In this document: positions 36,665 through 39,534 of the stretch, one piece after another
Numbering within the stretch: position 1 is the first letter of the stretch
Layout of the letters: each line of letters begins with the position of its first letter
Assembly (NCBI GenBank): GCA_051294905.1
Contig: CM119372.1
Location: 1,674,001-1,738,000 of the forward strand
Length of the DNA: 64,000 bases
Direction of reading: 5' to 3'
Source: Botryllus schlosseri
Lineage: Eukaryota
The notes under the pieces: generated by a model
What the model was told of the DNA's origin: nothing
The model's database searches: none
Seen by the model: only the letters and a program-made list of their open reading frames with translations
Position numbers and translations under genes: made by a program

Positions 36665-39534
36665 CTAGCATCCTCTTCTGAATATTCCCTGCGATCCGCA
36701 GCGGTTGCATACTTTGTGTTTGCAGACCCAGCACAGTTTCATTTCTGAAAAAGAAGGTGACCATCACGTACGATGAAATGTGGGGGCCAGCGCTAGATAA
36801 TGTAACAAGCAGACTTATGGACTACCAGATGATTCTAGTTGTCTATGGTTAGACTCATTAAAGTGAAATTACGGCAATCAAATCTAATCAAATTTGTGAA
36901 ATGCTTCTATGTTCTACTTTCAATTCGTATCTCATTTCTGATTTCCGTGAAAATGCTGTAGGAAAACTGTAAGGCGCGAAACGAAGCAAGTTTGGTGTAG
37001 GCCTACAGCCAGGTTGTCAAACATACGGCCTGCGGGCCGAATCCAGCCCACGAAGCAATCCTGAAAAGATTCAAAACTACTTATATTATCCAGCATATTT
37101 CTAACAAATGCTTCGTAGGAAATATTTCCATTTATTAATCCCTCAAGACAGCAAATATCGACTATGTTCATTGTTCATGGGCCACATCATAACCATCCGG
37201 CAACGGTCTTGGGGTTTCACTCTAGTTTTCCTAAACGGCTTGTTCCACAACTAACACAAAGTTTTAGTGCGGTAATACTTACGAGACTGTCCTCCGAAAG
37301 ATCTGCACGAATAGGGACAGACGTGTTTGAGGCAAAAGCGACCGAAGAGATGCCTAGTTCGACTCTTCGTGCTTCGTTTCACTCTCTGCTTGTTATCGCT
37401 TGAATCCAACAAGTGATCGAGGTCGTTGAATAATTTGGAATTAAACCGCTGTAAAGAGAATATATCTGCGAACTAGGTCGATATTTCGTAATCGTTCGAT
37501 TAAAATTTTTATCAAATCAATTTCCCACACGATTGAGATATAATGAAAATGATAGAAGGGTGCCGAAGCGACTTGGAGCAGACACCACCCTGGCCTATAG
37601 CATGTAAACAAGAGGAAAGGCCAACATAAAAGGAAAAGTTTCTTGTAGGTTCAATGTACAATTGAATACTACATATTTCTATATTTCTACTAGTTTGTGA
37701 CGATCCTGATGAATGTCGACCGAAAATGTTCGGGCTCATTTCAATGTGAATATACTATTCAATTGTATGAAAGGATGGGACGAAAATTGATGAGTCGAAA
37801 CGCGAGGTTGATATGTCAGATCGAGGTTCGGGAAGCTTGAGGGCTGACTACGTAGTATTCATTCAGCAGAAATTGCGTGTATTTCGCCTGGAATGTGTAG
37901 CCTACGTACTGAACCTTCGACTTACAACCACGAATGGAATTACATAGGTCTGTGTTTTTCAATCTTTATAATTCATCCACGGCCAGGGGTCGTCAGCGAC
38001 GGAGTAATCAAGCAGGTTTTGACTACACTTGCACTGTTTACTCAAACGGTTATGTTTTGACTATACTTGCAATCCTGCTCGACAGTTTTGAGTGCGAAAC
38101 TATTATTTTTTGACTTTGGACTCAGTATAGTAGAATATGGCGTCAGGATATGATTCCATGTGAGTGAAATTGTCATAACATGTAGGAAAATTCTCATGTA
38201 TGACTATCACTACATATATTTACGAAAATTGCGGGAGTTTTTAGTGCCATTAGTCAGTTTGCGTCAATTGCTCCTTGTAATTACGAAATTGGAAAGAACA
38301 TTGTATATCAACAATCGTATCACAAAATATGACGTCACCGATTGTTGATATACAATGTTCTTTCCAATTCTCTACTAGTTGCTGACGATTACCCCTGACG
38401 AGTGTCAGCCGAAAATATTCGGGTTCATTTCAATATGAATATACTATTTAATTGTATATTGAAGTTCTGTACCTCCAAGAAGCCCTATTGTAATTGCGTG
38501 GAAATTTACAGCGTTTGTTGTTGTTGTTTGGTGTATTTGTATTGTATGGTGTTTTTCGACTGATGGTATGGTCATTTACACCAGGTCGATATTATGTACT
38601 ATGACTACTGAGATGCCGACTTGTAGCACGGCTCACTTCTCACGCTCACGCAGATCGGATGGCGGGGAGGAGAGGAGATAAACCCTCACACTTGGCAGAG
38701 GATTCTGGAGTTTGCCTGGCGGAACACCGGTTGGAAATCACACGTTAAATAAATAAATAGAACGCATCAGCCCGGTCTATTGTTGAACAAGTAATGTGGG
38801 TCATCGTTCGTACCTTTCTCGCGTATTTCTCCACATTCCGGAATTGTTGAGAATGACGAAGATCTTGGAAGGCGTCGAGAAGGGCCTTTGTTACATTTTC
38901 TACATCTATAAATTAAGAATTAATATCCTTTATTCCAGTAAAACTGGTAAACTGCTAAGGAAAATAGCGAGATTCAATTGAAATTTTAAAATTTCAGTAA
39001 TAGAGTCAAATTGTTATTCCAATGCAATCATGAAGACGTCAGAATGGTGAAGGATTGACAAGGGTTTTAAAGGTAGAGATGCTGGAAAATAAGGAATCAA
39101 AATTGCAGAAATTATGCTGTGATTTTCGGGTATAATGTGCCGATTAGTAGTAAATTAATATTATTATTTATGCTACAGCATTTATGCATTAGCAGTTTTG
39201 GCACTGTTGCAGGGTTCGTTGCATACCTTGATCGTAGTCGTCAAAGTTTGAGTAATCACTGTCATCTTCCACATTGTAATCTTGATCATCTAAACAACAC
39301 AGTAAATAGAATCAAGAATAATCGAATTGGTAATGTGTGCATCTGTGCATATACTGCATCACGAAGCCGTTGTTTACAGCGGTATATCTGTGTCAGGTTA
39401 TGTAATCAAGGTATGTTATTCTCACCTTCCTGGGCTGCTGATGGTGGATCTTTTTGTACCGCAACGTACCGCGCCAGTGTGAATTGGAACGATACCAGAA
39501 GTACAGCGTACATCGCAAATTTAGAAATTGCCAT
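36665..39534 (-). CDS. Secreted prepropeptide (169 aa): signal peptide, acidic pro-region, RVKR site, cationic 8-Cys mature peptide
   Basis: Five phase-consistent GT-AG exons: 39534-39426 (MAISKFAMYAVLLVSFQFTLARYVAVQKDPPSAAQE), 39289-39227 (DDQDYNVEDDSDYSNFDDYDQ), 38905-38814 (DVENVTKALLDAFQDLRHSQQFRNVEKYARK), 37448-37283 (RFNSKLFNDLDHLLDSSDNKQRVKRSTKSRTRHLFGRFCLKHVCPYSCRSFGGQS), 36744-36665 (QMKLCWVCKHKVCNRCGSQGIFRRGC*). Confidence 0.85.
38285..38483 (+). mobile_element. Solo Penelope pLTR with partial inverted duplication at its 5' side
   Basis: Matches the 3' terminal repeat of 31485-32786. 38285-38312 is the reverse complement of about 38339-38370. Confidence 0.8.
38381..38424 (+). ncRNA. 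Minimal type I hammerhead ribozyme motif
   Basis: Identical to the 32713-32756 motif. Predicted cleavage after C38420. Confidence 0.8.

Follow-up and report, generated by a model that had tools for sequence, protein, structure and literature searches.

A single-copy tunicate gene for a putative secreted prepropeptide with a cationic, eight-cysteine C-terminal peptide

Cationic peptides and their precursors in tunicates and vertebrates

Tunicates are the sister group of the vertebrates. Within a stretch of 64,000 nucleotides from the tunicate Botryllus schlosseri (assembly GCA_051294905.1, contig CM119372.1, positions 1,674,001 to 1,738,000 of the forward strand; the whole stretch is called the window below), we describe a gene on the minus strand, coding from 39534 to 36665, that is spliced and expressed, is present in a single copy and specifies a chain of 169 residues, which we predict to be the prepropeptide of a secreted, cationic peptide with eight cysteines. 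Gene-encoded defence peptides of tunicates are mostly linear (PMC10608444). In the literature searched, the only disulfide-rich ascidian peptides were the turgencins (PMC7024374) and the St-CRPs (PMC13208793), whose sequences were both obtained from the peptide itself, using Edman degradation together with mass spectrometry; what we state of these papers, and of the one on botryllin cited below, refers to the portions of their texts that were available. The present locus supplies the whole gene of a cationic, putatively disulfide-rich peptide, together with its exon structure, expression and allelic constraint, and it defines a precise product for mass spectrometry and synthesis.

Nearest in kind are turgencins A and B, antibacterial, cationic, cysteine-rich peptides of the ascidian Synoicum turgens (PMC7024374). 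As described there, they resemble the peptide predicted here in coming from a tunicate, in being cationic and rich in cysteine, in having no adjacent cysteines and in lacking database relatives. Their spacing, C-x3-C-x4-C-x7/8-C-x2-C-x3-C, may be set beside that of the first six cysteines here, C-x4-C-x3-C-x11-C-x2-C-x4-C, and both have a Gly-Gly in the loop, a likeness of spacing by description and not by alignment. Turgencins differ in having six cysteines in 35-36 residues, C-terminal amidation, a helix-loop-helix structure and C1-C6/C2-C5/C3-C4 bonds (PMC7024374), whereas the peptide here has eight cysteines in 56 residues, a basic N-terminal tail of 13 residues, no amidation signal and other gaps. 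The turgencin motifs CxMAC and KKxGG are both absent, only the Gly-Gly of the long loop being shared; the likeness is one of resemblance, not of membership.

Two further tunicate peptides were compared. Botryllin, of the styelin type known from styelid ascidians, is made as a pre-propeptide of 158 residues with a signal of 23 residues, and its cationic product of 37 residues has two short helices (PMC9966394); it is thus a tunicate host-defence pre-propeptide of similar size that is cut to a short cationic product. The available text on botryllin does not contain the word 'cysteine' (PMC9966394), and the styelins are listed among linear α-helical peptides (PMC10608444), whereas the peptide here would be disulfide-rich and lies at the C-terminal end of its precursor. 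The St-CRPs are neutral peptides of 18-19 residues with six cysteines (PMC13208793), and we rejected them as relatives, since length, charge and cysteine count differ from those found here.

By its precursor logic the locus is closest to the hepcidin and α-defensin precursors, whose cysteine frameworks it does not share. Our searches outside the genome used single exons as queries (55, 30, 36 or 25 residues), which gives them low power; an absence of matches is weak evidence, and a diverged orthologue could be missed. Hepcidin precursors of vertebrates are short and secreted, and carry an R-x-K/R-R site directly before a C-terminal cationic product with eight cysteines; the gene is single or of low copy number, and its conserved product is both antimicrobial and a hormone. 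Hepcidin has its eight cysteines within 20-25 residues, with adjacent pairs, whereas the cysteines here extend over 43 residues with none adjacent, and neither cysteine-bearing exon matched the family in Pfam, so that we do not assign the peptide to the hepcidins. The α-defensin prepropeptides of mammals consist of a signal, an anionic propiece that offsets charge and a cationic, disulfide-rich C-terminal peptide. Defensins have six cysteines with a spacing of their own, are multigene and have a fast-evolving mature part. Our locus, by contrast, is a lone gene with furin-type sites, and its mature part is conserved. Eight cysteines without a CxC or CC element, and the lack of a match in the exon-wise Pfam search, set it apart from defensins of the alpha, beta, invertebrate and big types as well.

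A spliced and expressed gene of five short exons

A sequence-only reading of the window had proposed a hidden gene of five exons at this place. Its reassembled segments reproduce the frame, the AG/GT borders and the 169-residue protein, our spliced translation being identical to the proposed one letter for letter. The five exons lie on the minus strand, their introns are all GT..AG, and their coding segments add up to 510 nt, which is divisible by three and gives 169 residues and a stop. Reading 36600-39600 on the minus strand, we observed a pyrimidine-rich tract before the AG acceptor of each intron. The start ATG (39534-39532), in the context ACAATGG, is the first ATG of the transcript. No coding exon segment is longer than 166 nt; peptide genes with such short exons escape annotation based on open reading frames or on homology, and exon 4 as a query found no matching protein in two large libraries.

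The RNA evidence comes from assembled contigs of three runs (X1, X2 and X3, from three studies) and from the raw reads of a fourth run, X23, recorded as RNA and belonging to a fourth study. Runs of the same organism contained 11-18% of the sampled window words, approximately the exon share of the stretch. The features of the gene are as follows.

Exon 1: 39426..39570, minus strand; coding 39534-39426 (109 nt), with a short 5' untranslated region (UTR), codons 1-36 and one base
Exon 1, 5' limit: minus strand; contigs end at 39570 (X1), 39557 (X2) and 39553 (X3)
Signal-like residues 1-21: 39534-39472, minus strand; predicted from sequence
Exon 2: 39227..39289, minus strand; 63 nt, the acidic Asp/Tyr-rich stretch; both joints in the RNA evidence
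Exon 3: 38814..38905, minus strand; 92 nt, completing the first pro-segment and including an N-V-T sequon; the last codons are A-R-K of ARKR
Exon 4: 37283..37448, minus strand; 166 nt, opening with the final Arg codon of ARKR (37448-37446), then an acidic spacer of 20 residues and RVKR (37385-37374)
Exon 4, peptide part: 37373-37284, minus strand; the first 30 residues with cysteines 1-3, followed by one base of a split codon
Exon 5: 36395..36744, minus strand; coding 36744-36665 (80 nt with the stop), the first two bases finishing the split Gln codon
Exon 5, peptide part: 36742-36668, minus strand; 25 codons with cysteines 4-8; stop TAG at 36667-36665
3' UTR: minus strand; AATAAA at 36420-36415; contigs end at 36395 (X2), 36483 (X1) and 36547 (X3), so that AATAAA lies upstream of the furthest contig end

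Contigs of 724, 653 and 647 nt, all without introns, span the exons, and the 647-nt contig (X3-14) lists all five exon pieces. The four junctions proposed from sequence are all present in transcript contigs of the three runs and in raw RNA reads. In X1, X2 and X3 alike, a single contig per run crosses each of the junctions 36744|37283, 38905|39227 and 39289|39426; the raw reads of X23 that cross them number 23, 15 and 14, respectively. The 23 reads comprise 15 that join 36744 to 37283 and 8 of a variant form, 36742 to 37283; the X3 contig has this same form, with 2 letters between the joined parts that represent a synonymous variant. The remaining junction, 37448|38814, takes two listed forms: 37447 to 38821 with 8 letters between, in the X1 and X3 contigs and in 8 raw X23 reads, and 37450 to 38821 with 5 letters between, in X2; the letters between are allelic variants, with 4 and 3 base changes, and Ala-Arg-Lys-Arg is kept in all of them.

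Read depth was 0 in all four runs in the intron bins 37128-37268 and 37974-38255, and 26-46 in the contigs over exon 4. Read on the plus strand, the skipped segments are bordered by CT..AC, which shows that the RNA derives from the minus strand. As the 495.5-Mb assembly contains exons 1, 3, 4 and 5 only once each, the joined form comes from RNA and not from a processed DNA copy. From these observations, we conclude that the gene is real, spliced and expressed.

Intron 3 harbours a short element (38256-38537; the places 37676-37768 and 39948-40088 were noted with it) that is highly repeated in the transcriptome and whose summed word depth in transcriptome contigs reaches approximately 78,650, compared with approximately 30 for the exons. 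It contains a perfect 31-nt inverted repeat (38287-38317 and 38339-38369), and at a distance of 689 nt there is a partial second copy, 88% identical over 64 nt. The element looks like a transposon family of the miniature inverted-repeat type.

Layout and allelic constraint of the precursor

Judged by eye and by rule, the N-terminus has a lysine at residue 5, a hydrophobic run over residues 6-18 and Thr/Ala at positions -3/-1 before residue 22; residues 1-21 thus look like a signal peptide, which would take the chain into the endoplasmic reticulum. Residues 22-113 contain 21 Asp/Glu and 14 Lys/Arg, for a net charge of -7. Within this propiece, residues 37-57 form an acidic, tyrosine-rich stretch in which three tyrosines are flanked by Asp/Glu, possibly a context for tyrosine sulfation, and there is an N-V-T sequon. 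The two basic sites, ARKR (residues 86-89) and RVKR (110-113), enclose the acidic spacer of 20 residues, and both are retained in all observed alleles despite the 3-4 base changes at ARKR.

The remaining tail of 56 residues has 12 Lys/Arg, 3 His and no Asp/Glu, a net charge of +12, an isoelectric point (pI) of 10.1 and an average mass of 6462.6 Da with four disulfides. Its cysteines are at positions 14, 19, 23, 35, 38, 43, 46 and 56 (gaps of 4, 3, 11, 2, 4, 2 and 9), a span of 43 residues preceded by a basic part of 13 residues, with no adjacent cysteines and no CxC; the last cysteine is followed by the stop codon, without a glycine as amide donor. The composition and spacing first read from the sequence agree with these recomputed values, and by composition the proposed layout stands as well: a signal-like N-terminus, a propiece of -7, two R-x-K/R-R sites and an eight-cysteine tail of +12. 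Near the second cysteine cluster the hydrophobic moment at 170 degrees (0.29-0.51) is higher than at 100 degrees (0.02-0.26), a periodicity more strand-like than helical. A helix hairpin like that of the turgencins was considered for this cluster and set aside, since an amphipathic helix is not favoured by these values and the likeness is in spacing only.

The genome contains 11 exon-level matches over the Pfam cut-off to the P domain of proprotein convertases (P_proprotein), the best at 72.4 bits. Together with the two R-x-K/R-R sites, these place the chain among convertase-processed secretory prepropeptides as a generic kind, with cleavage predicted; the gene is so far an orphan, of a well-known kind of gene, that of the secreted and processed precursor. 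We propose that up to four disulfides would form in the C-terminal 43 residues, while the acidic propiece, possibly tyrosine-sulfated, would balance the positive charge of the peptide while it is folded and stored. Furin-type convertases would then cut after ARKR-89 and RVKR-113, and release a peptide of 56 residues with a mass of approximately 6.46 kDa and a pI of approximately 10.

Differences between the window and the expressed alleles bear on whether this frame is translated. We classified 28 base differences (23 listed coding single-letter differences, one from a joint table and four at junction 3). The variant table holds the best-supported rows (two more are unlisted), the alleles of the four runs were pooled, and changes in the same codon were counted separately; read in this way, the C-terminal peptide (56 codons) has 7 synonymous differences and 1 replacement, while the signal and propiece together have 9 and 11, respectively. 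Given 35 synonymous and 133 non-synonymous sites in the peptide, the binomial probability of at least 7 synonymous differences among 8 is 1.1e-4, and the ratio of non-synonymous to synonymous differences per site (pN/pS) is approximately 0.04, against approximately 0.31 in the signal and propiece. The sole replacement in the peptide is at its residue 2, before the first cysteine, and all eight cysteine codons are invariant. None of the 28 differences breaks the frame, and the coding part has no insertion or deletion, the one listed being at 36513 in the 3' UTR. Because of the 7 to 1 in the peptide against the 9 to 11 in the signal and propiece, we take the frame to be translated and the C-terminal peptide to be the constrained part of its precursor; the contrast with the propiece is suggestive and statistically weak (Fisher p = 0.088).

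These data also speak to the idea that the locus yields a spliced non-coding transcript in which a frame is open by chance. No homologues were found in the libraries, so that no conservation between species stands behind the frame, and this is what such an idea can call upon. Against it, the frame takes up 510 nt in transcripts approximately 650-720 nt long and begins at the first ATG, in a good context; moreover, differences that leave the frame intact, that are synonymous in 7 of 8 cases in the peptide and that spare every cysteine codon bring it close to refutation.

The window allele differs from all four runs at fixed places, for example 37355, 37401, 37443, 38884, 39464 and 39498. By our own division, approximately 0.15 of the synonymous sites differ between the window and the runs (16 changes over 104 sites). 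Either the species is highly polymorphic or the lineage of the assembly is separate from that of the sequenced animals.

Relatives, possible functions and neighbouring features

The sequence-only reading had raised the prospect of a new peptide family. In this genome a family is not borne out, the exon searches and the cysteine pattern giving one gene. Exons 1, 3, 4 and 5 each match only themselves in the assembly, except for one match of E 2.4 that contains an internal stop. A DNA pattern that encodes the last-exon cysteine spacing (C-x2-C-x4-C-x2-C-x9-C) and a stop directly after it had 15 matches in the genome compared with 23 for a reversed control; 13 of the 15 are TGT/TGC repeats, one is this gene, and the only other non-repeat match ends in TGG, not in a stop. 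The gene is a single-copy gene without paralogues.

Outside the genome, the exon-wise Pfam search, with E up to 10, returned only zf-piccolo, at 15.9 bits against a cut-off of 30, and neither cysteine-bearing exon matched an inhibitor or toxin family. Among PDB sequences nothing matched exon 4, and exon 5 matched only ribosomal zinc-ribbon chains, with E values of 0.74 or worse. A zinc ribbon or zinc finger (CxxC...CxxC) was considered and rejected, as no profile exceeded its cut-off, and the signal-like N-terminus and the convertase sites point to the secretory path, where the cysteines would be expected to form disulfides. In a word-indexed protein library, exon 4 had four word-sharing candidates among longer proteins, none of which scored, and no candidate among proteins near it in length. 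The same exon, searched by HMMER against 1.84 billion representatives, had one match (E 2e-5), to a repetitive protein of 1674 residues with six matching places. We rejected this protein as a chance match amplified by repeats: its best alignment covers residues 11-41 of the query, largely propiece, and stops at cysteine 1, and the matching segment has no cysteine.

The ESM Atlas gave no usable match to a single-exon query. A six-frame search of the whole genome with the Vanabin-2 profile (PF11437) had one match, of 15.5 bits (E 6.8, cut-off 25), on another contig, and none at the locus. The initial impression that the cysteine framework belongs to no named family thus agrees with the exon-wise Pfam and PDB searches and with the Vanabin-2 search. 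The literature we searched contained no cationic tunicate peptide with eight cysteines and an N-terminal acidic propiece, and two short motif strings occurred in no paper.

Because of the charge of the product, the propiece that would offset it, and the ascidian precedent of cationic, cysteine-rich antibacterial peptides, we tentatively propose a role in host defence, without considering it probable. The released peptide, polycationic and braced by disulfides, would bind the polyanionic surfaces of microbes, and the effector logic would be that of one conserved gene, as in hepcidin, rather than of a rapidly diversifying multigene family. Several points weigh against this proposal. Expression, roughly estimated from read counts at about ten reads per million in X23, is moderate, whereas antimicrobial peptides stored in granules are expected at very high expression. 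The exon-wise Pfam and PDB searches showed no similarity to a known antimicrobial family. The absence of a paralogue, and a product that is conserved (0.04) while its propiece varies (0.31), would fit the ligand of a receptor at least as well; such a pattern is that of hormones and hepcidin and not of fast-evolving, multigene antimicrobial or venom peptides. Finally, the pooled tally of alleles and the weak contrast between peptide and propiece both limit the argument from constraint.

The charge and layout, then, fit host defence, and a signalling ligand agrees about equally well with the single copy and the conserved product. Such a ligand could be a peptide hormone, a neuropeptide, or a small factor of the growth-factor-like or heparin-binding kind; the two tetrabasic sites would be cut in the regulated secretory pathway, the eight-cysteine peptide would bind a specific receptor, and the 20-residue spacer between the sites could be a second product. 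A conserved product with a freer propiece is usual in neuropeptide precursors, and strong purifying selection on the product beside a freer propiece is what the alleles suggest here; a single copy with no paralogue of this framework, two convertase sites in a genome that has convertases, and the moderate level of expression (again by the rough estimate) are consistent with it too. A charge of +12 over 56 residues without an acidic residue is, however, unusual for a hormone, and the chain ends in Cys-stop with no amidation signal. No known peptide-hormone family was matched in the exon-wise Pfam and PDB searches, nor was an orthologue found by single-exon searches, and the conservation is seen within the species only. 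On balance we regard a signalling ligand as rather unlikely.

Some other extracellular role seems improbable to us, whether in inhibiting proteases, in building or cross-linking the tunic or an adhesive, or in binding metal (the peptide has eight cysteines and three histidines). The secretory layout and the richness in cysteine and histidine would suit it, tunicates possess lineage-specific metal-binding proteins rich in cysteine and lysine, the vanabins, and a trypsin-like exon (33117-33389) lies approximately 3.3 kb from the 3' end of the gene, but on the opposite strand. The Vanabin-2 profile had no match over its cut-off in the genome and none at the locus, however, and the two cysteine-bearing exons gave no match to an inhibitor family. 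Repetition, abundance and multiple copies are usual for structural proteins, and none of these applies to the peptide gene.

The sequence-only reading had coupled host defence with a toxin. The first half of that pairing is consistent with charge and layout, while the second is its weakest part, as sea squirts are not venomous and have no venom apparatus. A toxin in the wide sense would be cytotoxic to predators, fouling organisms or allogeneic neighbours, or would block ion channels. Many venom peptides share the layout of signal, propiece, basic site and disulfide-rich product, and the peptide is strongly cationic; toxin genes, though, are usually multi-copy and fast-evolving, in contrast to the single copy and conserved product found here, and the exon-wise Pfam search returned no toxin family. 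We consider a toxin very improbable.

We hypothesize, as a speculation that we would not yet call probable, that this gene founds a new class of chordate peptides restricted to tunicates, perhaps to styelids. Such a class, a peptide of +12 with four disulfides, would have its own cysteine framework and fold and one conserved gene, and its peptide, like hepcidin, would have a specific target and be both defence effector and signal. In this it would depart from antimicrobial families, which usually expand and evolve fast.

Searching Pfam with 256 of the 259 open frames of at least 62 residues in the window gave no functional clue for the peptide gene, but neighbouring features were found. A single frame of 106 residues on the minus strand (10101-10418) matches the eIF4E-binding-protein profile PF05456 (E 8.9e-38, positions 7-116 of 117), and is an intron-less 4E-BP gene or a retrocopy. 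On the plus strand, 21015-21239 contains an ShK-like domain with six cysteines (PF01549, 30.1 bits, above the cut-off, E 7e-7); the frame probably belongs to a larger secreted protein as one of its exons and has no likeness to the peptide studied here. The trypsin-family exon mentioned above (plus strand) matches PF00089 with an E of 2.4e-9. A plus-strand frame of 160 residues at 31661-32143 matches GIY-YIG below threshold (21 bits, cut-off 22.6) and is perhaps the remnant of a Penelope-like element.

Elsewhere in the assembly, a cellulose-synthase match (26.3 bits, over the cut-off) is separated by 3.3 kb from a glycoside-hydrolase-6 (GH6) match on the same contig and strand (C9:15025585-15029521, minus strand). 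Cellulose synthase joined to GH6 is a hallmark of tunicates among animals. A second GH6 match is located approximately 40 kb away (C9:15068570-15068854, minus strand), possibly marking a second GH6-bearing copy.

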